42,628 nt of DNA. Source: a virus. The position numbers and the translations under genes were made by a program. The stretch spans positions 1 through 42,628 of the IMG/VR virus record IMGVR_UViG_3300045988_054691, one strand, 5' to 3'. Positions 1 through 42,628 of the stretch are shown here, one piece after another; the stretch's first letter is position 1; each line of letters starts with the position of its first letter. The notes beneath the pieces were generated by a model. That model worked only from the letters and a program-made list of their open reading frames with translations. It was not told where the DNA came from and did not search any database.

Positions 1-77
1 ACCATTTTATTTTTATTCATATTATTACAAATTTCAGGAGGAAAAGAAATGATGGCAATGTTATGGGCACAGCAGAT
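1..77. repeat. terminal overlap identical to 42552..42628 (circular contig closure)
   Basis: The first 77 nt are identical to the last 77 nt of the window. The unique sequence is therefore 42551 bp. Confidence 0.9.
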
Positions 78-186
78 CATGTTAGGAAAGAAAACTTATT
101 CACAGGTACCGAGACTTTTAAAGGACAAGGTAAAAGAGATCCTGATTGATTCCGGAACAGAAGAACTTGTAACAGAGGAGCAGTAG
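49..186 (+). CDS. tiny 45-aa phage protein, paralog 1 of 3 (XkdX/CD1375-like small protein)
   Basis: ATG at 49 follows AGGAGG at 36-41. The translation MMAMLWAQQIMLGKKTYSQVPRLLKDKVKEILIDSGTEELVTEEQ shares a core (I.G.KT...VP.R.K..VK..L) with the small ORFs at 5073..5180 and 5231..5356. It is below the ORF-track size cutoff. Confidence 0.6.
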   Translation: MMAMLWAQQIMLGKKTYSQVPRLLKDKVKEILIDSGTEELVTEEQ

Positions 187-300: not shown

Positions 301-813
301 ATGAAAAGAAAAAGAAGAAAATTAGCAGCTATCATCTGCGCACTTACACTGGCACTTTCCAGTGCTGTACCGGTATATGCTTGTACGCCACCGCTCAAAA
401 CACCGTCCGTAGAGATTCCAGACATCAATTTTCAGCCTGATGGTGCTTTAAAAGATGCTATTAGTAATGCAGCGAAAAACTGGATTTCGAAATGCATCCT
501 CGGTACTCCGACAGTGGAGTATGCATCGTATTACAAAAGTACATCGAGGTATTTTAACTACAGCTACGTGGCGGTCAAATGGTCAGAGGTCGAAAACGCA
601 ACATCTTATAAAGTGCGTATCACAAAAACTGACGGAACATGGGAAGAATACGATACGACTTATACAGCATTTTACTCTACCAATTACACAGATGTTTTTG
701 TGGCGAACGGGATGGACGGAGCAACCGTTAAAGTGAAAGCATATGGAGATGAGGATAAGTTTAGTTTGTGGTCAGAAGAATATACAATTACAAACAATGG
801 TTCATTTTATTAA
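301..813 (+). CDS. secreted or lipoprotein-like protein with an FN3-like beta-sandwich region
   Basis: AGGAGG lies at 286-291. The N-terminus MKRKRRKLAAIICALTLALSSAVPVYAC has a basic n-region, a hydrophobic core and a Cys at position 28, which fits a signal peptide or lipobox-like site. The C-terminal part (VAVKWSEVENATSYKVRITK...VKVKAYGDEDKFSLWSEEYTI) reads like a fibronectin-III-type domain. Confidence 0.6.
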   Translation: MKRKRRKLAAIICALTLALSSAVPVYACTPPLKTPSVEIPDINFQPDGALKDAISNAAKNWISKCILGTPTVEYASYYKSTSRYFNYSYVAVKWSEVENATSYKVRITKTDGTWEEYDTTYTAFYSTNYTDVFVANGMDGATVKVKAYGDEDKFSLWSEEYTITNNGSFY

Positions 814-830
814 AAGGGGTGTGAAGAATA

Positions 831-3251
831 ATGGCAAATATACAGTCATATCTTGATCAGATTGCCAATGCTGTATACGGTGAAGAAATCAGATCATCAA
901 TTATCAATAGTTTGCAGAAAGTCAATGATGATAATGATTCTTATGCTGATCTGAAAAAGGAAGTAATTGCTGCAAGAGATGACATCAATGATCAGGTAGA
1001 TCAGTTTGATAAGAAGATGGAAGTTGCATCTGAAATATCAAAGAAACTTGAAGAGGATACAGCATCAGGAAATCAGACTCATTCAGATCTGACAAATTCA
1101 ATTACCACAGCACAGAGTGAGAGAAGCAAGTTAGAATCTGCTTATGAGAATGTGGGAAAGGTTGTAGAATCGGCAAATGAGAAAAAGGATGCTCTTGACG
1201 TATCTTTATCCTCAGCTAATACAGCGAAGAAAAATCTTGATGGCTCTGTGACTACAGCAACCACAACAGAGAAGAGTCTTGATGAAACCATTCAGACAAG
1301 TGAACAGAGGAAGAAAAATCTTGATTCTTCTATAACATCCGCTAATAAGATTTTTTCTAACCTTAATGATGCAATCACAAGTGCTAATAATGCAAAAAGT
1401 AATCTGACTCAGGTAACTGATTCCGCAGATAGTGCTAAGACTGCTCTGAGTGAAGTTATAGACAGTGCAACAGCTACTAAGTCAATCATGGATGCATCGG
1501 TAAAATCTGCAACCACAGCTAATACAAACCTCAGTGAGAGTATTAAAAATGCGACTACAGCAAAAAATACGCTGCAAGGGGTAATAGATTCAGCGAGTGA
1601 AATTAAAGGACAGTTGGATAGTTCCAATACTACAGCAGTAACATCAAAGAAAAATCTTGATTCTGCAATTTCTGATGCAAGTACAGCAAAAAGTCAGCTT
1701 CAGGAAGTAATTAACAGTGCCGATTCAATAAAAAAGGCATTATCTGATGTAATTTTGACAGCAAATACAGCAAAGTCAAATCTTGACACATCTGTAAATA
1801 CAGCTAATGGTGTATTACAGTCACTAAGTGCAGAAAACGCAAGTGCTGCAAGTAATATTGATGAATTGAAAAGTGAAAACTTCAACAGTCAAGAAATTCT
1901 TTCAGGTGTGGCAGATATTCGTGCCTATTTGGGTATCACTGCTGATGATATTGTTGGTATTCAGGTCGATTACAAAAATAAAACATTCAAAAGACTTGCC
2001 GGAGCAGCCAACCTTACAAAAGGTTCTGATTTTGACAAGTTCACAATGTTTGGCGGTCGTAAACGCTGTAATGTGGCTGACGATGGTTCTATAGTAGCAT
2101 GGTATGGTGACGCAGATTACAAAGAAGATGGTTCAATGGGTCAGGTCATGGTGTATCAGCCAAAGTTCTATTACTTAGTGTGTCCGGTAGAGTATGACCC
2201 TATTGATACAGGCATTGGTTACCACTTAAGAAAGGCAAACTATTATGTGTCAGAAAAGCCACGTGCAGGTTTCAGACTTCACCCTGCATTCTATGATGCA
2301 GCAGGAAATGAACTGGAATTTATTCTTGATTCAGCGTTTGAAGGTAGTATTTATGATGCATCAGCAAGTGCATATTTGTTAAATGATGAACAGGTGATGA
2401 CAGTTGGTGAAGATAAGTTTTCATCAATTGCAGGTACTAAGCCTGCATCCGGTCTTACACAGAATCTTACAAGACCAAATATTGAAATCATGGCACAGAA
2501 TAGGGGTGCGAACTGGCACGGTGATTTCATAAAACCAACTTCTGCAAGACAATTGTTAATGATCATCGAAGGTGGAATAATGAACACACAGACAGCATAT
2601 GGTCAGGGTGTTGTGAGTATTCCTGACAACGGTTCATATAACTGTTCTTCAATTACTGGAAGTACATCAGAAATTGGTAATACTTCCGGTAGAGCATCAA
2701 AAACAATAAATACAAAAGGTGATGCAAGCACGACAGAAACAGTAGATGGAAAAACCGCAGTATCTTGGAGAGGTACAGAAAACCCTTGGGGTAACATTTG
2801 GAAATTTGTTTATGGTATCAATTTTTATTGTACTGTAGATAAACCATTTGAAGGATATGTTTGTACTGATCTGAACTTTGCAGAATCAAAGAACAGTGGA
2901 AATTATGAAAATATTGGTTTCACGCTTCCATCAGCAAACGGTTACATTTCAGCAATAGGATATTCCACAAAGTATGATTGGTTATTCTTACCATCAGAGG
3001 TAACCGGGAACAGCTCACTCCCTGTCGGTGATTATTACTATCAGAATAATACTTGGAATGGTTACCGTATTGCTCAGTTGGGCGGTTGTTGGAGTAATTG
3101 GGCTAATGCGGGCGGTTTCTATTGGGCTCTGAATAGCGGTGTTGGTTATCGTGGTCGGAATGTCGGGGGTCGCTTGGTATATATTCCAACACGTGATTCT
3201 GCTACTTATACCGCTGCAATCGAAGCATGGAAGCAGAAAATGGCAGCTTAA
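831..3251 (+). CDS. tail fibre / receptor-binding protein, DGR variable (target) protein
   Basis: 806 aa. The N-terminal ~350 aa are a Ser/Thr/Ala/Asn-rich periodic coiled-coil-like stalk. The C-terminal globular part ends in ...YRIAQLGGCWSNWANAGGFYWALNSGVGYRGRNVGGRLVYI, which is the VR and is typical of C-type-lectin-fold DGR targets. The gene sits after the baseplate genes across the circular junction. Confidence 0.85.
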   Translation: MANIQSYLDQIANAVYGEEIRSSIINSLQKVNDDNDSYADLKKEVIAARDDINDQVDQFDKKMEVASEISKKLEEDTASGNQTHSDLTNSITTAQSERSKLESAYENVGKVVESANEKKDALDVSLSSANTAKKNLDGSVTTATTTEKSLDETIQTSEQRKKNLDSSITSANKIFSNLNDAITSANNAKSNLTQVTDSADSAKTALSEVIDSATATKSIMDASVKSATTANTNLSESIKNATTAKNTLQGVIDSASEIKGQLDSSNTTAVTSKKNLDSAISDASTAKSQLQEVINSADSIKKALSDVILTANTAKSNLDTSVNTANGVLQSLSAENASAASNIDELKSENFNSQEILSGVADIRAYLGITADDIVGIQVDYKNKTFKRLAGAANLTKGSDFDKFTMFGGRKRCNVADDGSIVAWYGDADYKEDGSMGQVMVYQPKFYYLVCPVEYDPIDTGIGYHLRKANYYVSEKPRAGFRLHPAFYDAAGNELEFILDSAFEGSIYDASASAYLLNDEQVMTVGEDKFSSIAGTKPASGLTQNLTRPNIEIMAQNRGANWHGDFIKPTSARQLLMIIEGGIMNTQTAYGQGVVSIPDNGSYNCSSITGSTSEIGNTSGRASKTINTKGDASTTETVDGKTAVSWRGTENPWGNIWKFVYGINFYCTVDKPFEGYVCTDLNFAESKNSGNYENIGFTLPSANGYISAIGYSTKYDWLFLPSEVTGNSSLPVGDYYYQNNTWNGYRIAQLGGCWSNWANAGGFYWALNSGVGYRGRNVGGRLVYIPTRDSATYTAAIEAWKQKMAA
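3068..3180 (+). repeat. DGR variable repeat (VR)
   Basis: Aligns without gaps to 3339..3451 (offset 271). There are 22 mismatches, all at positions that are A in the TR. The VR ends 23 codons before the stop of the target gene. Confidence 0.9.
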
Positions 3252-3276
3252 AATGTAACTTAAAAATCAAATATAA

Positions 3277-3580
3277 GGTTGAAAGAATCTCTGATATTGT
3301 TTGTTATTACCTGTAATGAACACCATGAAAAACAAATATATTGCTCAATTAGGCAGTAATTGGAATAATTGGGATAATGCAGGCAGTTTCTATTGGAATC
3401 TGAATAACAGTGTTGGTAATCGTAATCGGAATATCAGGGGTCACTTAATAATTGCAAAATATAGCCGGATGGAAACATCCGGCTATTTCTATAAATTGTG
3501 TGTATTCTTTCAACCGTGCCACTTGGCAAAACATATAAATAAGCGGTGCAAGACAACCCTTTAAGGGAATACCGCTTTAC
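3277..3580 (+). ncRNA. putative DGR RNA (TR plus structured spacer)
   Basis: A 12-bp perfect inverted repeat, GGTTGAAAGAAT (3277-3288) and ATTCTTTCAACC (3504-3515), encloses the TR. A 9-bp hairpin, ATAGCCGGA/TCCGGCTAT (3461-3486), lies 10 nt after the TR. A nested hairpin, AAGCGGT...ACCGCTT, spans 3541-3577. The transcript ends are not determined. Confidence 0.5.
3339..3451 (+). repeat. DGR template repeat (TR)
   Basis: This is the A-rich copy of the VR, with 37 adenines by my count, 22 of which differ in the VR. In the VR reading frame it is rich in AAT/AAC/AGT codons (...SNWNNWDNAGSFYWNLNNSVGNRNRNIRGH...). Confidence 0.9.
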
Positions 3581-3661
3581 TTATCACAAAATAAGGAAAG
3601 GTCAACCGTATTTACCGGGCAGTAATGCCGACTGAAATTCGGATAATGCAAATACCAAGGA

Positions 3662-4792
3662 ATGAAACGCTATGATCACTTATATGAAAAGATTTATGAC
3701 CTTGAAAATTTAAGAAAAGCACACCAACACGCAAAGAAAGGAAAAGGTTGGTACAGAGAGGTTCAGGAGATTGACAAAGATCCTGACAAGTACCTGAAAC
3801 AGATTCAGGAAATGCTTATCAACCACACTTACAAAACATCTGACTATGAGGTGTTTTATAAACAGGACGGTAAGAAGTTAAGGAAAATTTACAAACTGCC
3901 TTATTTCCCTGACAGAATTTGTCAGTGGGCTATCTTACAGGTTATTGAACCTTGTATCATCAATAACTTAACTGCTGACACCTATTCAGCAATACCAAAC
4001 AGAGGTATACACAAGGGTCTGACAAAATTACAATCTGCAATGTGGAATGACCCGGAAGAATGCAGATATTGCTTAAAATTGGACGCAAGACACTATTATC
4101 AGTCAATCAACCACGATCTTCTGAAAGAGAAGTATTCAAGAATGTTCAATGATAATGAACTATTGTGGTTGTTAAATGAAATCATTGACAGTATTGAAAC
4201 AGCAGAGATTGAGGACTTAACAGCAATCTATCTGTTGGAAGAAGATATTGACCCTGAAACTGGTATACCGATAGGCAACTACTTGTCACAGTATTCAGGT
4301 AACTATTATTTTTCAAGTTTTGATCACTGGATAAAAGAACAGAAGCACGTTAAATACTACTTCCGTTATATGGATGATATGGTTATCTTTGGCAAGACAA
4401 AAGAAGAACTGTTTGCCTTGAAGAAAGAGATTGATATTTATTTCAGGAATGAATTGAAATTGAACATAAAAGAAAACTGGCAGGTGTTCCCATCGTATGT
4501 AAGAGGTGTTGACTTCTTAGGTTACAGAACATTTTACAAGTATACATTACTTAGAAAAAGCACCTGTTTGGAAATGGAAAAGAAAATGACCGCTATCAGG
4601 AACAAAGTGGAAGCCGGGAACATGATGAACTATTCAGAGTGGTGTTCAATCAATTCTTACAAAGGTTGGTTGAAATATGCTGACACCTTCCGGCTATATC
4701 AAAAGTATGTTGTACCGCTGTTACCTTATGCGGATGATTATTATATACGCAACATAAAACCAAACACAAAGAAAGGATTGAATGTAGCATGA
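3662..4792 (+). CDS. DGR reverse transcriptase
   Basis: 376 aa. The N-terminus MKRYDHLYEKIYDLENLRKAHQHAKKGKG is typical of DGR RTs. It has a YMDD catalytic box (FRYMDDMVIFG) and an IGNYLSQ motif (the I/LGxxxSQ signature of DGR RTs). It lies directly downstream of the TR. Confidence 0.9.
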   Translation: MKRYDHLYEKIYDLENLRKAHQHAKKGKGWYREVQEIDKDPDKYLKQIQEMLINHTYKTSDYEVFYKQDGKKLRKIYKLPYFPDRICQWAILQVIEPCIINNLTADTYSAIPNRGIHKGLTKLQSAMWNDPEECRYCLKLDARHYYQSINHDLLKEKYSRMFNDNELLWLLNEIIDSIETAEIEDLTAIYLLEEDIDPETGIPIGNYLSQYSGNYYFSSFDHWIKEQKHVKYYFRYMDDMVIFGKTKEELFALKKEIDIYFRNELKLNIKENWQVFPSYVRGVDFLGYRTFYKYTLLRKSTCLEMEKKMTAIRNKVEAGNMMNYSEWCSINSYKGWLKYADTFRLYQKYVVPLLPYADDYYIRNIKPNTKKGLNVA

Positions 4793-5055
4793 TTGATTAT
4801 GGAAAACAGAAAAGCACCGTCAGACCGGAAGAACTGGAACTGACGGAAACAAAAGTATTTGTCAGTTCCAATATCACGGAAGTGAATGAAGATGAAACTG
4901 ACGGACAGCCGGGATTTACTGGATATGAATTTGACCTTATCGAGTATGACAAGGACGAATACATTAAAATTCAGGCAGAGAAGAATGCTGATCTTGAAAA
5001 TGAAATTACACAGGCGCAGATTGCTATGTGTGAAATCTATGAAATGATGGGATAA
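4789..5055 (+). CDS. acidic 88-aa hypothetical protein, translationally coupled to the RT
   Basis: Its ATG overlaps the RT stop (ATGA). The C-terminal helix ...NADLENEITQAQIAMCEIYEMMG resembles the C-terminus of ORF 42164..42535 (...KNEMLEGCILEMSEMVYQ). It is acidic and not Avd-like. Confidence 0.55.
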   Translation: MIDYGKQKSTVRPEELELTETKVFVSSNITEVNEDETDGQPGFTGYEFDLIEYDKDEYIKIQAEKNADLENEITQAQIAMCEIYEMMG

Positions 5056-5072
5056 GAAAGAAGGTGTGAAGT

Positions 5073-5180
5073 ATGGCAAAGATTTATGCATCACTAATCA
5101 TTAAAGGTGTTAAAACACTGGACGATGTACCGGACAGACTGAAAGAAGCTGTCAAGGCTATTTTAGAGGGTGATAACTGA
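5073..5180 (+). CDS. tiny 35-aa phage protein, paralog 2 of 3
   Basis: MAKIYASLIIKGVKTLDDVPDRLKEAVKAILEGDN. An RBS-like GAAGGTG lies upstream. It is a paralog of 49..186 and 5231..5356. Confidence 0.55.
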   Translation: MAKIYASLIIKGVKTLDDVPDRLKEAVKAILEGDN

Positions 5181-5230
5181 TGATACGTCAGTTGATCATA
5201 AAAATTATATTCAGAAAGGATGTGCAGACT

Positions 5231-5356
5231 ATGGCAATTATCTATGCAACCCTGATCATTAAGGGTAAGAAAACATTTGCTGATGTTCCTGATCGTATCA
5301 AGGACAAAGTAAAGGAAGTTTTGGTTGATCTTGATTGTCCTGAATTAGCAGAATAA
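5231..5356 (+). CDS. tiny 41-aa phage protein, paralog 3 of 3
   Basis: MAIIYATLIIKGKKTFADVPDRIKDKVKEVLVDLDCPELAE. An RBS-like AAAGGATG lies upstream. It is followed by a terminator. Confidence 0.55.
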   Translation: MAIIYATLIIKGKKTFADVPDRIKDKVKEVLVDLDCPELAE

Positions 5357-5387
5357 TCAACAGACAAGGAAATTATCACATACACGA

Positions 5388-5436
5388 AAACAACCGCCAT
5401 ATGACGATTATATAACGTCAGAAGCGGTTGTTTTTG
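5388..5436 (+). terminator. rho-independent terminator
   Basis: The stem AAACAACCGC (5388-5397) pairs with GCGGTTGTTT (5424-5433) and is followed by a T-run. An inner GACG/CGTC hairpin sits in the loop. Confidence 0.6.
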
Positions 5437-5459
5437 CGTACAGAAAGGACAACAGACCA

Positions 5460-5774
5460 TTGGAACAATTTATTTATTCAACGTATACGATTGTTTTACC
5501 AATCATTGTCACTGCCCTTATGGGATATGTGGTTTGGTTGCTGAAAAATCAAAAGAAAGACAGGGATGCAAACAGTAAAGGTACAATGCTTTTACTTAGG
5601 GTTCAGCTTATCGAATATCACGATAAGTATATGAGACTTGGCTCAATCCCATCGTATGCTTACGAGAATTTCTGTGAAATGTATAATGCGTATCACAAAC
5701 TCGGTGGCAATGGAATGATTACAAAGATGATGCACGAAATTGAAGAATTGCACCTAAGAGGAAAAGGAGAATAG
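5460..5774 (+). CDS. membrane-anchored protein of the lysis cassette (function unknown)
   Basis: TTG start with GAAAGGA about 10 nt upstream. One N-terminal TM segment (IVLPIIVTALMGYVVWLL). It sits immediately upstream of the holin and endolysin. Confidence 0.5.
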   Translation: MEQFIYSTYTIVLPIIVTALMGYVVWLLKNQKKDRDANSKGTMLLLRVQLIEYHDKYMRLGSIPSYAYENFCEMYNAYHKLGGNGMITKMMHEIEELHLRGKGE

Positions 5775-5778
5775 AATC

Positions 5779-6072
5779 ATGGAACAGATTATGAATTATG
5801 TAAAACCAGAGCTTGTTGTCGTGGCAGTTGTCCTGTATTTTATCGGAATCGGACTAAAAAAATCTGAAACCGTAGCGGACAAATACATTCCGGCAATCCT
5901 TGGAGTTGTTGGAGTTGTAATTTGCGGAATCTATGTTGTTGCAACTTGCGACCTTAAAGGTACACAAAATATCGCAATGGCAATTTTCACAGCAATTGTT
6001 CAGGGCATTCTGGTTGCGGGACTTAGCAATTATGTAAACCAGGTGTTTAAACAGTTAAATAAAGCTGAGTAG
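5779..6072 (+). CDS. holin (Hol44 / phage_holin_5-like)
   Basis: 97 aa with multiple TM segments (VVVAVVLYFIGIGL, AILGVVGVVICGIYVV, AIFTAIVQGILVAGL). The N-terminus MNYVKPEL... and ..KYIP.ILGVV.. are typical of this holin family. It lies directly upstream of the endolysin. Confidence 0.75.
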   Translation: MEQIMNYVKPELVVVAVVLYFIGIGLKKSETVADKYIPAILGVVGVVICGIYVVATCDLKGTQNIAMAIFTAIVQGILVAGLSNYVNQVFKQLNKAE

Positions 6073-11214: not shown

Positions 11215-11620
11215 AGTCTCATAAGCAACAGAGCAAGCAGGAAAAACCGGGTGAAGCGATAGGGCTACACACAAGTAACATGGTAGTTATGCTGACAAAT
11301 GTATCAGACAGAGTGTGTGAAGAATAAACATGACCCGGCAAAACAGTTGAAGAAAGTAGGAACTGTAGGACAAGAAAGCAAAGTGAGCTGTACTAATTGA
11401 AGAAAACAGTTTAGCACTAGCCAATAGTGACTTTACTCCTTAACCAAGAAGCAGTTAAACGGAAGAATCAACGAGCGAGAGGACACAGTACTTTGTTGTT
11501 TATGTAACCAGCTTCCGGTCACTCAGACCATCCATTGCCTGACCGGAAGTATAAAAAAGAGAATGAAATGATAATTGGAAAAACCAAAGGAATGAAATTT
11601 ATATAAGTGAGGTGTGCGGA

Positions 11621-11812
11621 ATGAAGAAGTATTTGATTATTTTCACAGAACGGTTTCCTGAATGTTATGAAGGAACAAGACAATATTGCAAGACTGTTGA
11701 CACTAAAGCAGAGGTCAAAGAAGAAATCAGAAAGTTGGAAGAATCACCGTTTACAGTTTCTTTTACAGTGTATCAAATTGGAGAATATGGACTGATGACG
11801 GTTGTTGAATAA
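11621..11812 (+). CDS. hypothetical early protein (63 aa)
   Basis: ATG at 11621 with AGTGAGGTG upstream. It is the first ORF of the early operon. I recognise no family. Confidence 0.5.
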   Translation: MKKYLIIFTERFPECYEGTRQYCKTVDTKAEVKEEIRKLEESPFTVSFTVYQIGEYGLMTVVE

Positions 11813-11882
11813 GCCGAAACGGTCAGCAATGACCGTCTGCCGGGAATGACCACCCGGTACTGATGATGGCAGGTCAGAAAGG

Positions 11883-36857: not shown

Positions 36858-39395
36858 TTGGATATTTTTTCGTTGGTCGGAAAAATAACGATCAATTACG
36901 CTGATGCAGTGAACAACATTGAAAAGGTTTCAAAGTCTGCAAAGGACACCGCTGAAACACTGGAAAATGTTGACAAAAAGGCAGATAGTGCAGGTGACTC
37001 AGTAGAAGATGCCGGACAAGCTGCCAAGAATGCAGACAGTGGATTTACGACATGGAAAGCCACGCTTGCTAATTTAGCATCTACAGCAATCACAAAAGTA
37101 ATTTCAGGATGTACACAGTTAGCTGAAAAAATGGCAGATGTGACAAAATCAGCGGTTGGTCACTATGCTGAATATGAACAGTTGGTTGGTGGGGTTGAAA
37201 CACTATTCAAAGACAGTTCCGGTAAACTGATTGATTATGCTGAAAAGGCATATAAGACAGCAGGAATGAGTTCAAATCAGTACATGAATACAGCAACGTC
37301 ATTTGCTGCTTCACTGATTCAGGGTCTTGGTGGTGATACTGCAAAAGCGGTTGAACTGACCAACCTTGCTATCACAGATATGTCAGATAACGCTAACAAG
37401 ATGGGTACTGACATAGGTTCTATACAGGACGCTTATCAGGGTTTTGCGAAGCAGAATTATACCATGCTGGATAACCTCAAGTTAGGATATGGTGGTACAC
37501 AATCGGAGATGATTCGACTAATCAATGACTCCGGTGTACTTGGTGAAAAGATTGAAAGTTTGGATAACGTAACGTTTGACCAAATGATTGAAGCTATTCA
37601 CAAGATTCAGGACAACTTAGGTATAACCGGAACAACAGCACTTGAAGCAGGTACGACAATATCAGGTTCATGGAGTTCAGTACAGGCATTGTTTGAAAAT
37701 ATCATGACAAAAGTAGGCTCGAAACTTGCACCTACTGTTATGGGATTTTTACAGCAATTGTCAGACTGGATGGAAACAATAGATTGGAATGCGTTTGCAA
37801 CATCTGTCGGTGATGCCCTACAAAGGGTATTTGACTGGATTCAAAAAATTGATTTTACAACATTCTTTGAAAAAGGAATGGACGGTGTTGAAAACTTCCT
37901 TGAAAAACTAGGTGGTCTTATTGAAGATGTGCCTAAGATTATTCAAACGTTCAAGGATTGGTCACCACTGATAGCCGGAGTTGCTGCCGGGTTCGTAACC
38001 TTAAAGGTTGCAATGGCAATATCATCATTGATTAGTGCCATGACAACAGCATGGACAGCATACAAAACAGCAAACGAAGGTGCTACTATTGCACAGTGGC
38101 TTTTCAATGCTGCATTAAATGCTAACCCTATAGTTCTTATAGTCACGCTTGTGGCAGGGCTTGTGGTTGCACTGATCACATTATGGAATACCAATGATGG
38201 ATTCAGAGAAGCAGTCACAAATGCTTGGGAAAAAATAAAGGAAGTCTTTGGTACGGTTATTGACGCTATCAAAGGCTTTTTTAGTGGATTGGTGGAGAAA
38301 GTACAGACTGCATGGGAATCTGTAAAAGAAACAGTAACCAATGTGTTTACTGCAATAGCTGATACTGTAAGTGCAGTGTGGGAAATAATCAAGAATGTGA
38401 TCACAGTCGGTATCATGCTGATTGGAAGTATTATTGATGCAGCATTCCAGATCATAACACTCCCGTGGCGGTTTATTTGGGAGAATTGCAAGGAATACAT
38501 CATATCGGCATGGAATTACATCAAAGATACAGTATCGTCGGCACTTAACATTATATCAAGTGTGATTAGTGACGCATGGAATACGGTATCAAGTTTCCTG
38601 ACTTATATTTTGAGTAATATCAAGAATAAATTTGTCAGTGATTGGAATGCAATAAAATCTGTTGTATCCAATGTTTTGCTCATGATCAGCTTGACAGTTA
38701 CCAGTGTGATGAACAGTATCTGGTCAGTTGTTTCATCAATACTCAATGTGATTAAATCTGTATTCAGCAGCGCGTGGAATGGAATCAAGTCTGTAGTATC
38801 TAGTGCTGTAAATAACATCAAGTCCGTAGTATCCAGCGGTCTTAATGGTGCAAAATCGACAGTAACTGGTGTATTGAACAGTATCAGGTCCGCATTTTCT
38901 TCTGTGTGGGATGGCTGCAAAAATATAGTTGGTAATGCAATTGGTCATATTAAGTCACTCATGAATTTCTCATGGAGCTTGCCGAGTTTGAAATTACCAC
39001 ATTTCAGTATTTCTGGAAAATTCAGTCTGAATCCTCCGTCTGTACCGAAGCTTGGAATCGAATGGTACAAAAAGGCAATGGACGATGGTATGATCATGAA
39101 TCAGCCGACTATTTTCGGTTATAACGCTAAGTCTAACCAGTTCCTTGCAGGTGGTGAAGCTGGATCTGAAACAGTAGTTGGTACACAGAATCTGATGGAC
39201 ATGATTCAGGAAGCTGTGAATAATGCCGGAAGTGGAGACGGAGATAGTGAAGCAACCCGTGCATTACTGGAAGCAATCTTTAACTGGATGCGAAACGGTG
39301 GATTGTACAAACTGCTGATTGATGTTCTGACGAACGGTGTAGAATTTGAATTTGACAATAGAGAAATTGCAAGGTTGGTGAAAAAGTATGCTTGA
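36858..39395 (+). CDS. tape measure protein
   Basis: 845 aa. TTG start with AAGGGGGTGG upstream. It has a hydrophobic central segment and a C-terminal series of repeats of the type SxxWNxIKSVVSS. Confidence 0.85.
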   Translation: MDIFSLVGKITINYADAVNNIEKVSKSAKDTAETLENVDKKADSAGDSVEDAGQAAKNADSGFTTWKATLANLASTAITKVISGCTQLAEKMADVTKSAVGHYAEYEQLVGGVETLFKDSSGKLIDYAEKAYKTAGMSSNQYMNTATSFAASLIQGLGGDTAKAVELTNLAITDMSDNANKMGTDIGSIQDAYQGFAKQNYTMLDNLKLGYGGTQSEMIRLINDSGVLGEKIESLDNVTFDQMIEAIHKIQDNLGITGTTALEAGTTISGSWSSVQALFENIMTKVGSKLAPTVMGFLQQLSDWMETIDWNAFATSVGDALQRVFDWIQKIDFTTFFEKGMDGVENFLEKLGGLIEDVPKIIQTFKDWSPLIAGVAAGFVTLKVAMAISSLISAMTTAWTAYKTANEGATIAQWLFNAALNANPIVLIVTLVAGLVVALITLWNTNDGFREAVTNAWEKIKEVFGTVIDAIKGFFSGLVEKVQTAWESVKETVTNVFTAIADTVSAVWEIIKNVITVGIMLIGSIIDAAFQIITLPWRFIWENCKEYIISAWNYIKDTVSSALNIISSVISDAWNTVSSFLTYILSNIKNKFVSDWNAIKSVVSNVLLMISLTVTSVMNSIWSVVSSILNVIKSVFSSAWNGIKSVVSSAVNNIKSVVSSGLNGAKSTVTGVLNSIRSAFSSVWDGCKNIVGNAIGHIKSLMNFSWSLPSLKLPHFSISGKFSLNPPSVPKLGIEWYKKAMDDGMIMNQPTIFGYNAKSNQFLAGGEAGSETVVGTQNLMDMIQEAVNNAGSGDGDSEATRALLEAIFNWMRNGGLYKLLIDVLTNGVEFEFDNREIARLVKKYA

Positions 39396-40218
39396 TGTAG
39401 CAAGATACGTGAACCATCTGAACCAAAGTATTGGCTTTGGTTTGGGTGGTATTTTTATTACAGATTCCGAACTTAGGAATTATGAATGGGAATATGATAC
39501 TGATTATGACGAGATTACCAACTTTCATAAAGGTGTCAAAGAGAAAAAAATGAAGATCATTATTTCTGCCGCCACTGAGGAAGAGGGGATTGCAAAAAGA
39601 AATGCTATCTTCCAGATCTTTGAATCTGATATTCTTGCGGAACAGTCAGGAAGATTGTATCAAGATGGCTATTACCTTAATTGCTATATCGTAGCATCGA
39701 AGAAAGCAAAGTGGTATTTGACAAAACGGTATCTGGAGATTGAAGTCACCATTGCAACAGATCAGCCGGACTGGGTACAGGAAAGAGAGTACAATTTCCT
39801 GAAGACAGAAGGCGCGACGATTGAAATGGATAATCTGAAGAAATATCCATACAAATACGGATATTATTATCTGAATCAGGTATCATCTTCCTCGATCAAT
39901 AATGTTAGTATCACGGAATCAGATTTTGTGCTGCGGATATATGGTTCCGTATCAAAACCGCTTGTGAAGATTGGAGACAATACCTATCAGGTTAATATTT
40001 CTTTAAATGCAGGTGAGAGATTGGAGATTGATTCCCGGAGAAAAACGGTTAGATTGGTGCACGCTGACGGGTATACAGAAAATGTTCTCTGGTCAGCCGG
40101 AAAAGAACACTACATCTTTGAGAAAATTGCGTCCGGTACACAGATTATTGCGTGGGACGGTAGCTTTTCATTTGACTTGATCCTCGTTGATAAAAGGAGT
40201 GAACCATTGTGGAAGTAA
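39388..40218 (+). CDS. distal tail protein (Dit-like)
   Basis: 276 aa, directly after and overlapping the tape-measure gene. Confidence 0.6.
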   Translation: MLDVARYVNHLNQSIGFGLGGIFITDSELRNYEWEYDTDYDEITNFHKGVKEKKMKIIISAATEEEGIAKRNAIFQIFESDILAEQSGRLYQDGYYLNCYIVASKKAKWYLTKRYLEIEVTIATDQPDWVQEREYNFLKTEGATIEMDNLKKYPYKYGYYYLNQVSSSSINNVSITESDFVLRIYGSVSKPLVKIGDNTYQVNISLNAGERLEIDSRRKTVRLVHADGYTENVLWSAGKEHYIFEKIASGTQIIAWDGSFSFDLILVDKRSEPLWK

Positions 40219-41177
40219 TGTATACAGACGTAAACAGGCTTCCACAAGGGAGCCTTGAAAAGTATTCGATTGATTTAGAACTCGGAGGTGACAATGACTT
40301 TGAGCTTCAGATGAACGTAAAAAATCATTGCATGAGTGCCGGATGCATCTGGTATGTAAAAGATGAGGAATATGGCGGGATTGTGGATGATGTAAAAGTC
40401 GACACAGAAAAATCCAAAGTATATTATTCCGGAAGAAGTTGGCGTGGCGTTCTGGAAAAGAAAGTGATCAGACCGGACACCGGAAAGGATTACCTTGTGG
40501 TATCCGGAGATGCAAATGATATCCTTGCGTTGCTGATAAAGCGGTGTGATCTGGTAGATCTGTTTGCTGTTCCTGGAACATCTTCCGGAATACAGATAAG
40601 CAGCTATCAATTTCCGAGGTACATTGATGCCTATTCCGGCATTGTAAAAATGTTGACCTCGGTGAGTGCAAAGCTGAAAATTGTCTACAACGACAAGGAT
40701 TCTTGTGTGAATATATCAGCTGTCCCGATCGAAGATCTGTCAGAGAAATATGAGTATTCCGATGACTACGGAATGAAGATCATAATCGAAAAGAAAACCG
40801 GAGGGGTAAATCATCTGATCTGTCTTGGAGCTGGCGAATTGGCAGCCAGAACAGTGATTGATTTGTATGTAGATAAGACAGGAGAGATCAGTGAAAAACA
40901 GTCATATTTTGGAGAATATGAGATTGCAGAAACATATGATTATGGAAATTCTGAATCTGCTGCAGAGCTGAAAGAAAAAGGAATTGAACATCTGAAGGAA
41001 CTGAAAAGTTCGGATTCTGTCTCAGCATCATTCGGTAAATTGGATGTAGATATCGGTGATATTGTTGGTGGAAGAAACCGGGCGACAGGAATTGTTCTGA
41101 AAGAACCGGTTACGCAGGAAATTGTAAAAATAAAAAATGGCATAGAAACTATAACATATAAGGTTGGTGAGGAATAA
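40218..41177 (+). CDS. tail-associated / baseplate protein (Sipho_Gp37-like, Tal position)
   Basis: The ATG overlaps the Dit stop (TAATG). The sequence style (..YYSGRSWRGVLEKKVI.., ..GGVNHLICLGAGELAARTVIDLY..) resembles siphovirus Gp37-like minor structural proteins. Confidence 0.55.
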   Translation: MYTDVNRLPQGSLEKYSIDLELGGDNDFELQMNVKNHCMSAGCIWYVKDEEYGGIVDDVKVDTEKSKVYYSGRSWRGVLEKKVIRPDTGKDYLVVSGDANDILALLIKRCDLVDLFAVPGTSSGIQISSYQFPRYIDAYSGIVKMLTSVSAKLKIVYNDKDSCVNISAVPIEDLSEKYEYSDDYGMKIIIEKKTGGVNHLICLGAGELAARTVIDLYVDKTGEISEKQSYFGEYEIAETYDYGNSESAAELKEKGIEHLKELKSSDSVSASFGKLDVDIGDIVGGRNRATGIVLKEPVTQEIVKIKNGIETITYKVGEE

Positions 41178-41179
41178 CA

Positions 41180-42046
41180 ATGGCAACAAATTATTTAGAT
41201 ACAGGAGATACAGGACGTGCAGTTAGTGCAGAATCTGACGGTGCACTATTTGCCGGGATTTTTGGAAGTGCAAAATATGTATTAGAAAACGGCAGCCAGT
41301 TCAAGGCAGAGGTACAGTCCAATAACATTGTAAAAATCTCCGATGGTGATGCAGTCATGTACGGACGACACGTAAGGATCCCGGCGAATGATAGCGCACT
41401 GGTGACTATTAACAATGGACATTCTGGAACGAACAGGATTGATCTGATCGTGTTCCGGTACACAAAGGATAGCACCGGAAAAGAAACGGTTGATCTGGTT
41501 GTGATCCATGGAGAAGATTCTACCGGAACAGCTACAGCACCGACGGCGGTGGATGGAAATATACTGACCGGTGCAATGCAGTCAGACTTTCCTCTGTATA
41601 CCGTGGAACTGAATGGAATCAACATTGTAAAGGTGAATCCACTGTTCAATGTGATCGGTAATATCAGCAAGTTAAAAGAAGAGCTTACTGAATTAAATAG
41701 CAATTTAACCAAAACTAACACTGTTTTAGAGAACAGGAAACCAATAATCGTTGATTCAACTGCGCAAGGAACAGTAAATTTGGATACCAATAGCTTTTTG
41801 AAAGTTGGCATTACATATGCCTTTATCGTTACAGTTTCCTCCAATATCAGCAGTGAAAGCTATAAACAGGAAATCAATTGTGCATTAAACAATGTAAATA
41901 TGGGAAATAACGGAAACTATTACAGACTTACCTCTACATTTGCAGGTAAATGCACTAAAGGCGATAAGATTCAAATTACATCATATAAAAATGGTGGATC
42001 TTGGAACGGTTTTGCGACAAGAGCTATTTTTATACCAGTTAGCTAA
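41180..42046 (+). CDS. tail / baseplate fibre-like structural protein
   Basis: 288 aa and beta-rich, following the Tal-position gene. A coiled-coil segment (NISKLKEELTELNSNLTKTNTVLE) separates two globular parts. Confidence 0.5.
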   Translation: MATNYLDTGDTGRAVSAESDGALFAGIFGSAKYVLENGSQFKAEVQSNNIVKISDGDAVMYGRHVRIPANDSALVTINNGHSGTNRIDLIVFRYTKDSTGKETVDLVVIHGEDSTGTATAPTAVDGNILTGAMQSDFPLYTVELNGINIVKVNPLFNVIGNISKLKEELTELNSNLTKTNTVLENRKPIIVDSTAQGTVNLDTNSFLKVGITYAFIVTVSSNISSESYKQEINCALNNVNMGNNGNYYRLTSTFAGKCTKGDKIQITSYKNGGSWNGFATRAIFIPVS

Positions 42047-42071
42047 AATAAGTAAATAAACTTATTTATTT

Positions 42072-42100
42072 ACACTCGGCATTAGTCGGGTGTTTTTGTT
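42072..42100 (+). terminator. hairpin plus T-run
   Basis: ACACTCGG pairs with TCGGGTGT (8 bp including two G-U pairs), followed by TTTTT. Confidence 0.45.
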
Positions 42101-42163
42101 ATGCGCTTTTATATATGTAACTTTATCAATCCCTCTAAAAAGAAGAAAGGGGCAAACAGAAAA

Positions 42164-42535
42164 ATGAAAATCACATTCAATGATGGTCAGGAACTGCAGA
42201 TCCAGCAGGTCACTGAGCAGACGGATGGCGCACTTCTGATCAAGACCATTTCAGCACACGAGGATCAGCTGAAGATTTTATTCTCTGATCCGACCACAAC
42301 TAAGAGAATGTCTGTGAGCGAGCGGGATGCAGATACCGTTGTGTATGAAAATTACACGAAGCTTGATGCAATCGTGAAGTACACAGCCGGCATCCTTGGT
42401 GTGCTGATGTACCGGGAAGGAGAAGATCCGGACAGCCGGATAGCAGCTATGGAGACACGACTTAAAAAAGCGGAGGAGAAAAATGAAATGCTCGAAGGAT
42501 GCATTTTGGAAATGTCTGAAATGGTATATCAGTAA
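42164..42535 (+). CDS. hypothetical tail-module protein (123 aa)
   Basis: I chose the ATG at 42164 with AAAGGGG upstream. The C-terminal helix ..KKAEEKNEMLEGCILEMSEMVYQ resembles the C-terminus of ORF 4789..5055. The next gene across the circular junction is the tiny paralog at 49..186. Confidence 0.55.
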   Translation: MKITFNDGQELQIQQVTEQTDGALLIKTISAHEDQLKILFSDPTTTKRMSVSERDADTVVYENYTKLDAIVKYTAGILGVLMYREGEDPDSRIAAMETRLKKAEEKNEMLEGCILEMSEMVYQ

Positions 42536-42551
42536 AACGATAATTGTATTA

Positions 42552-42628
42552 ACCATTTTATTTTTATTCATATTATTACAAATTTCAGGAGGAAAAGAAA
42601 TGATGGCAATGTTATGGGCACAGCAGAT
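42552..42628. repeat. terminal overlap identical to 1..77
   Basis: Identical copy of the first 77 nt, including the RBS and the first 29 nt of the small gene at 49..186. Confidence 0.9.

Follow-up and report, generated by a model that had tools for sequence, protein, structure and literature searches.

An accessory-free diversity-generating retroelement with a tail-fibre-like target in a temperate phage of human-gut Lachnospiraceae

Does a phage of the human gut carry, beside one of its tail genes, a working device for rewriting the tip of the encoded protein? The question is raised by positions 831 to 4,792 of the IMG/VR virus record IMGVR_UViG_3300045988_054691, which was analysed over its full length of 42,628 nucleotides (nt; hereafter the window). 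A preliminary description of the window, made from its letters alone, had recognised in this segment a diversity-generating retroelement (DGR): a target gene ending in a variable repeat (VR), a template repeat (TR) and a reverse transcriptase (RT). The answer reached here is that the locus is a complete and functional DGR of the accessory-free kind (target-TR-RT) in a temperate siphovirus-like prophage of human-gut Lachnospiraceae, a reading to which we assign a probability of about 93%. Its core components are:

831..3251, + strand: target gene, an open reading frame (ORF) of 806 amino acids (aa), with N-terminal coiled-coil repeats of ~370 aa and a C-terminal tail-fibre-like domain containing the VR
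3068..~3163, + strand: diversified part of the VR (codons 746-778), whose mismatches to the TR all fall at TR adenines
3164..3180, + strand: 3' end of the VR, GGGGGTCGCTTGGTAT, resembling an initiation-of-mutagenic-homing (IMH) site and G/C-richer than its TR counterpart at 3435-3451
3339..3451, + strand: TR, non-coding, with 37 adenines and 35% GC; its 3' end (3435-3451) is IMH*-like
3662..4792, + strand: DGR reverse transcriptase, 376 aa, with IGNYLSQ at residues 204-210 and YMDD at residues 236-239

Exact alignment joins the VR (3068-3180) to the TR (3339-3451) over 113 nt, ungapped and at an offset of 271 nt, and bears out the extent that the preliminary description had given to each. That description had proposed the alignment as a check on its own reading: the two repeats differ at 22 of 113 nt, and all 22 differences lie at TR adenines (hypergeometric P = 6e-14, given 37 A in the TR). 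In the 806-aa target the complete VR accounts for residues 746-784, with 71 nt left between its end and the stop codon; the TR sits inside the 410-nt gap between target and RT, and there is no third copy of the repeat on either strand of the window. The AAY codons of the TR (Y, pyrimidine) are such that no stop codon can arise from them, and the TR allows ~7e14 protein variants. At repeat positions 97, 104, 108, 109 and 112 the VR/TR differences are constant in nearly all of 65 related loci. Because the differences there are fixed, the last ~17 nt (VR 3164-3180, TR 3435-3451) are read as an IMH/IMH*-like pair; they behave as such a pair and not as diversified sequence, and their function would be the one known from the DGR of Bordetella phage BPP-1. 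One element of the preliminary description falls away: the order of parts, which it had called canonical, is not that of BPP-1, because no avd gene is present.

The VR is hypervariable in nature, and its variation follows the adenines of the TR. Related loci were collected with back-translated RT peptides, yielding 80 IMG/VR loci (RT 63-99% identical) and 44 genome loci; an ungapped TR/VR pair could be extracted from 65 of the 80. These 65 loci contain 25 distinct TRs and 65 distinct VRs, with only ~18 non-adenine mismatch cells among them. Thirteen loci share the exact TR of the window and have 13 different VRs, 27 of whose 29 variable columns are TR adenines. Nucleotide diversity, calculated over 36 close loci, reaches 0.207 in the variable part of the VR, as against 0.040 in the TR and 0.023 in the last 17 nt of the VR. 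Three loci (L001, L002 and L018) show 100% identity to the window over the 176 nt lying 3' of the variable part, and 99.6-99.8% over the spacer and the 5' end of the RT gene; their VRs are different. Elsewhere the target bodies of the IMG/VR loci are mosaic and ~72% identical (from comparisons of ungapped flanks and regional MAFFT alignments), and because of this mosaicism the near-isogenic comparison was made on the closest protein homologues. Of the amino-acid differences among the 50 closest target proteins (identity 91-98% over 436 aa), 59% are concentrated in the 38 VR residues, and the positions with at least 4 residue types coincide exactly with the TR codons AAY, TAT, GAT and ATC. Every related locus has an intact RT ORF with intact catalytic motifs. 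The polymorphism confined to TR-adenine positions that the preliminary description would have sought by mapping reads is found in public assemblies, and these differences between assemblies indicate that the DGR is naturally active.

The RT itself points the same way. Both motifs named in the preliminary description were located within the 376-aa ORF, IGNYLSQ at nt 4271-4291 and YMDD at nt 4367-4378. In Pfam the protein matches only the generic RVT_1 family (3e-16), and in PHROGs it matches phrog_1423 (3.6e-118). Its best match among all PDB chains is bRT, the RT of Bordetella phage BPP-1 (8ub7; E 2e-26, residues 2 to 346), with 28% identity over the full length and IGNYLSQ aligned onto IGSLTSQ of bRT; the group II intron RT reached 1e-11 in the same search, group II and retron-type RTs scoring at least ten orders of magnitude weaker than bRT. 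The group II, retron, Drt and UG (DRT/Abi) RT models of NCBIfam and PADLOC all stay well short of their family cut-offs. Searching deposited phages with the RT by tblastn gave 103 records, all below 50% identity, among them crAss-like phages, Psychrobacillus phage Perkons, and Faecalibacterium, Butyrivibrio, Bacteroides and Bordetella phages; there is no cultured relative with more than 50% RT identity, and near-identical DNA in deposited phage genomes is limited to tiny fragments in Clostridium phages CS266P1-4. An adenine-specific TR/VR pair adjoins the RT in 14 of 16 phage records (15 fetched, plus BPP-1), and RT homologues down to ~26% identity adjoin such pairs in other phages. The signature of motif 4, the PDB similarity, the family cut-offs and the co-occurrence with TR/VR pairs together identify the RT, at the level of sequence, as one of the DGR type, so that the preliminary choice of this type over group II, retron or Abi RTs is upheld.

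What the RT would diversify is a tail-fibre-like protein. The target matches phrog_5302, 'tail protein', at 2.6e-94. An AlphaFold2 (AF2) model of residues 371-806 (predicted local distance difference test score, pLDDT, 76.7; predicted template-modelling score, pTM, 0.82) resembles, in a Foldseek search of BFVD, a 'tail collar fiber protein' (2e-38) and a crAss-like 'tail fiber protein' (2e-13). Across the junction of the circular contig, the genes immediately preceding the target gene are those for the tape measure, Dit and minor tail proteins; the lysis genes come just after it. These findings support its designation as tail-fibre-like. Residues 1-370 (831-1940) form a coiled-coil of degenerate repeats spaced at 42, 84, 126, 168, 252, 336 and 378 nt, all multiples of 42. 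Homologues of the target range from 628 to 806 aa, and these differences in length suggest that the length of the fibre is variable. The fold of the VR domain is less clearly outlined: in the AF2 model the VR part has pLDDT <50, and a model of the C-terminal 272 aa alone (pLDDT 54) is too poor for a fold search. Weak BFVD matches are to a TvpA-like protein (4e-3) and an FGE-like viral protein (2e-3); the Pfam FGE-sulfatase family appears at 0.045 in 1 of 67 target homologues; and a profile search of PDB sequences gave a non-significant match, on GNxW and GGxW...GxR motifs, to 5vf4, which we take to be a Thermus DGR variable protein.

Several observations weigh against the reading proposed here. 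On the side of the target, Foldseek comparison of the 371-806 model with the PDB gave no match with E <1. The structure prediction that the preliminary description had recommended thus upholds the similarity to tail fibres and does not confirm the C-type-lectin fold for which it wished to test the VR domain, a fold that the modelling leaves plausible. The same description had called the target the likely receptor-binding fibre; the fibre part of this stands, on phrog_5302, the BFVD models and the position in the tail module, while receptor binding is presumed, it and its effect on host range being carried over by analogy from BPP-1. The DGR might accordingly work on something other than a receptor-binding fibre, such as a decoration protein or adhesin, or on a fibre whose tip binds, for example, mucus glycans, in which case no switch of tropism would follow. 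A second fibre-like module (41180-42535, with the XkdX ORF at 49..186) could be the primary receptor binder, and the low-confidence model of the VR domain leaves room for such a role. We regard this alternative as unlikely in view of the match to phrog_5302 and the tail-fibre matches in BFVD, the place of the target in the tail module just before the lysis genes, and the homologous modules of BPP-1, crAss-like and Faecalibacterium phages, which are annotated as tropism determinant or tail fibre.

On the side of activity, what is known of VR differences comes from comparison between assemblies rather than from within one population; Avd, which is essential in BPP-1, was not detected in the ORFs tested; and 3' of the VR there is no stable hairpin or cruciform (the DNA fold of 3155-3330 comes to -9.8 kcal/mol, z = +1.2, and no inverted repeat is listed). 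All of this would suit a fossil DGR, its parts intact, its homing ceased and its VR/TR differences frozen as relics. A fossil is nevertheless very improbable: thirteen loci with identical TRs, several of them also with near-identical flanks, have 13 VRs that differ essentially at TR-adenine columns, all 65 VRs are distinct, and the RT ORF and its catalytic motifs are preserved throughout. The idea that the RT comes from a retroelement of another kind (group II intron, retron or Abi/DRT) and that the repeats are an unrelated partial gene duplication can appeal to the top NCBIfam match, a group II intron RT/maturase model, and to weak PADLOC matches to UG17 and other DRT models, but that top match scores 98 bits against a cut-off of 300, the RT resembles bRT far more closely, differences at adenines alone (P 6e-14) are not what a chance duplication would leave, and the RT-TR-VR association is conserved from 99% to ~26% RT identity, so that adenine-only mismatches and conservation across loci effectively refute it. 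The locus is best read, then, as a functional DGR that lacks a recognisable accessory gene.

The missing Avd deserves separate treatment. No match to the Avd family (PF05635), whose members are basic four-helix-bundle proteins, was found by Pfam in 28 ORFs, ten further ORFs of the structural module having been scanned with PHROGs only, and there is no room for an avd gene between the target stop codon (3251) and the TR (3339). The nearest small ORF is the following:

4789..5055, + strand: acidic ORF of 88 aa (isoelectric point, pI, 4.05), overlapping the RT stop codon; its membership in the element is uncertain

This ORF directly follows the RT in 90 loci and follows it in all the Firmicutes relatives; its homologue in Faecalibacterium phage FP_Epona (E 2e-6) likewise comes after the RT, and XkdX again comes next. 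The idea that it is an Avd homologue was rejected in view of its acidity, its lack of similarity to the six Avds compared (pI 9.1-10) and its place in an XkdX-type module. It is taken as a probable member of the fibre module, of the XkdW/XkdX type, and not as an accessory of the DGR. Among the phage DGRs sampled, small acidic ORFs that run over the RT stop codon are common. In Bacteroides phage jmh43_hp, a hankyphage (L133), the ORF annotated 'Avd' downstream of the RT (5302-5787) is likewise acidic, with pI 5.0, and BLAST shows no similarity between it and six bona fide Avds. The lack of Avd in the present element is known rather than new, because accessory-free cassettes make up 29% of DGRs and one RT lineage is without avd (Wu et al. 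2018, PMC5758913).

The 210-nt spacer between TR and RT is structured (z = -2.75 for the fold of the single sequence), and comparison across loci resolves it, together with the region upstream of the TR, into discrete RNA elements:

3277..3288, + strand: 5' arm of a duplex, upstream of the TR, GGTTGAAAGAAT; perfect complement of 3504-3515
3461..3486, + strand: stem-loop of 11 bp with a GAAA tetraloop, starting 10 nt after the TR
3504..3515, + strand: 3' arm of the duplex, ATTCTTTCAACC; pairs with 3277-3288, bracketing the TR
3517..3533, + strand: hairpin UGCC-ACUU-GGCA followed by AAAAC, nearly invariant, with 2 compensatory pairs
3541..3642, + strand: further covarying helices, namely 3541-3546/3572-3577 with an inner hairpin, and helices within ~3606-3642

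The duplex that brackets the TR is supported by covariation: in 19 divergent loci, both partners have changed in 10 of its 12 pairs, and pairing is kept in 93% of cells, a level reached by none of 500 shuffles and falling to 28-53% in slid controls. Since the upstream arm was picked in each locus as the best complement, the pairing figure is inflated; the arm does, however, keep a constant position and constant GG...CC anchors. Compensatory changes between subfamilies are also seen in the aligned stems of the GAAA stem-loop. Applied to 15 loci, RNAalifold predicted 31 pairs, of which 16 show compensatory changes; on a MAFFT alignment of 27 sequences, in which indels misaligned the rest, it recovered the small hairpin only, and it was the 15-sequence set and the anchored alignment of the arms that worked. 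The motif CCNUGCCNCUUGGCAAAA (window 3514-3533), which comprises the 4-bp hairpin and the run of adenines, also lies between TR and RT in DGRs of Bacteroidota, Cloacimonas and Christensenella whose RTs are 38-48% identical. Rfam (15) contains nothing that matches in the DGR region, CCNUGCCNCUUGGCAAAA included.

The layout has a counterpart in BPP-1, from which a tetraloop-capped stem-loop downstream of the TR has been described as 'Avd-binding' in a survey that covered only DGRs with Avd homologues (Handa et al., 10.1101/2023.10.23.563531). Shared with the BPP-1 RNA of that report are the tetraloop-capped stem-loop of ~9-11 bp just 3' of the TR, the duplex of ~12-13 bp joining the regions upstream and downstream of the TR, and the adjacent small stem-loop followed by adenosines; the difference is that the present element has the same layout without a detectable Avd. 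To find such RNA elements in an Avd-less DGR is a modest extension of what is known, and it raises the question of what, in place of Avd, binds the first stem-loop.

A second property of the family concerns TR adenines that are followed by G, at 3351, 3355, 3381, 3385 and 3409 in the window (and at equivalent positions in L001-L121). Counted over the window's family, 344 such AG cells read G in the VR in 330 cases (96%) and A in 14, never C or T. Where the AG adenine occupies a synonymous third-codon site (TTA to TTG, GCA to GCG, GTA to GTG), the count is 121 G to 3 A. Adenines of the AAY type, by comparison, give all four bases in the VR, A being the commonest at 35-60%. The bias extends to DGRs with RTs 38-48% identical to that of the window, in which G is found at 102 of 115 AG cells and at 32 of 33 synonymous sites. 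In distant phage DGRs (five with annotated Avd, BalMu-1, Arawn and a Helicobacter prophage) such adenines are uncommon and mostly remain A (11 cases, against 1 G); Perkons and fEV-1 depart from these other distant DGRs in that their AG adenines are mostly G.

Other explanations of the bias fare poorly. Selection on the protein fails, as the pattern holds at synonymous sites; re-copying of the previous template base fails for AT and AC contexts; repair of G.T mismatches or GC-biased conversion would make G absorbing at AAY sites, where A is nonetheless the commonest base; and a host-specific repair context is unlikely for a pattern that spans Firmicutes and Bacteroidota hosts. It is possible, and is offered here only tentatively, that the Avd-less RT lineage copies a template A before G (mostly in 5'-CAG-3') almost always as G, the TR in effect 'spelling' as A what is an invariant G in the VR. 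A lineage-specific property of the RT, by which A and G preceding G in the template are equivalent, would be the most economical account, and it is consistent with the A/G polymorphism that TRs show at positions where the VR always has G. Context dependence of bRT is the subject of two 2025 preprints; with G 3' of the adenine, bRT is reported to make only A-to-G errors and to do so at a lower error rate (10.1101/2025.03.24.644984). That report fits the type of change seen here and not its near-completeness, and because bRT shows a bias with a lowered error rate, near-complete conversion of A to G would be a new property. No description of an AG rule was found in the papers searched. If the proposal is right, TR adenines fall into two classes, randomised (AAY-type) and hard-wired A-to-G; the complementary DNA (cDNA) would be closer to the VR than to its own TR, and drift between A and G at AG sites of the TR would be silent. 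An AG-to-GG rule intrinsic to the RT would, moreover, change how TRs are read and how DGR diversity is estimated, and would let engineers protect chosen adenines. This pattern and the RNA architecture are the parts of the system that are worth following up.

The elements described above can be assembled into a scheme in which self-priming, the start and stop points of the cDNA, homing and the effect on host range are modelled on BPP-1. An RNA reaching from at least 3277 to the start of the RT gene would be transcribed and would fold with the 3277-3288/3504-3515 duplex bracketing the TR, the GAAA-capped stem-loop and the conserved hairpin with its A-run lying just 3' of the TR in the folded RNA. 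(A promoter and terminator scan of 3100-5500 gave sites no more frequent than in shuffled sequence.) The RT would copy the TR into cDNA, presumably by self-priming and starting near the IMH*-like 3' end (~3434), and would insert any base at the adenines of AAY, CAA, TAT, GAT and ATY codons. The cDNA would then replace VR 3068-~3163, the direction being set by the fixed IMH-like end at 3164-3180. In this way ~15 surface codons at the C-terminal tip of the fibre could be recoded, with ~7e14 proteins and no stop codon accessible, presumably altering receptor specificity.

The phage context is that of a temperate virus. The first 78 nt of the window (1-78) recur at 42551-42628, which shows the contig to be circularly closed, with 42,550 bp of unique sequence; across the circular junction the tail module (36858-42535) runs straight into the DGR region. 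The annotated genes include an integrase, a CI-like repressor, an antirepressor, TerS, TerL, an SPP1-type portal and a major head protein, together with a 202-aa major tail protein, tape measure, Dit, holin and ChW-amidase endolysin; no tail sheath is among them. Because it combines an integrase and repressor with tail genes lacking a sheath, the phage is regarded as temperate and siphovirus-like, as first proposed. Prophage copies with RTs 98-99% identical reside in Lachnospiraceae genomes and in Coprococcus comes MSK.16.63. Paralogous small XkdX-like ORFs (phrog_1382) at 49..186 and 5180..5356 each close a fibre-like module, and the pair suggests that the phage has two tail-fibre modules, only one of them targeted by the DGR. 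Directly upstream of the target, 301..813 encodes 170 aa with a lipoprotein-like signal peptide (...LSSAVPVYAC); neither Pfam nor PHROGs nor NCBIfam has a family that this ORF matches, and only 2 of the related loci yielded homologues. The early/lysogeny region contains a full-length RAGATH-8 RNA (11224-11500, + strand, 280 bits) and, ~300 nt away, a type II hammerhead ribozyme (11812-11878, + strand, 52.5 bits).

The locus offers a clean case, from nature, of a cassette for hypermutating a tail fibre in a prophage of abundant gut Lachnospiraceae, and it has spread so widely that its activity can be seen from public assemblies alone. The existence of a lysogenic isolate genome, that of C. comes MSK.16.63, makes host-range switching experimentally testable. 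As a compact, Avd-independent system of one RT and an RNA of ~385 nt with clearly delimited covarying elements, it should be useful for studies of mechanism and for the engineering of targeted mutagenesis.

Set beside known systems, the element is an ordinary DGR, of a well-known kind already catalogued in tens of thousands. With the prototype, the BPP-1 DGR (mtd-avd-TR-brt), it shares a tail-fibre target with a C-terminal VR and a TR placed just upstream of the RT; RT homology over the full length (28%), with I/LGxxxSQ and YMDD motifs; adenine-only VR/TR differences in AAY codons, with fixed IMH/IMH*-like differences at the 3' end; and a structured TR-RT spacer RNA containing GGCAAAAC. It differs from BPP-1 in having neither avd nor a GC-rich hairpin after the VR, in an AT-rich TR that uses AAT rather than AAC, in the 5-6 internal TR adenines followed by G (the BPP-1 TR has 0), and in its host, a Gram-positive gut anaerobe. 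Alike in plan are the accessory-free DGRs ('Architecture A1', and the avd-less RT lineage of PMC5758913), which also consist of target, TR and RT with no accessory gene; the RT may belong to 'lineage 3' of Wu et al. That paper describes neither the RNA elements nor the AG pattern. The same accessory-free layout is found in the crAss-like phage cr55_1, the archaeal virus vir215, Psychrobacillus phage Perkons, Butyrivibrio phage Arawn and Yersinia phage fEV-1. Faecalibacterium phage FP_Epona has the same order of genes, from an 'Mtd-like' target through TR, RT, a small acidic ORF (87 aa), XkdX and holin to endolysin, while its RT is only 26% identical and its host belongs to the Oscillospiraceae. 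In Caudoviricetes sp. vir215, from a Methanomassiliicoccales host (L128, 1895-5029), a phrog_5302 target is separated by a gap of ~400 nt, containing the TR, from a phrog_1423 RT that is 36% identical, and there is no Avd. Because vir215 is an archaeal gut virus with the same module, the cassette crosses the boundary between domains of life.

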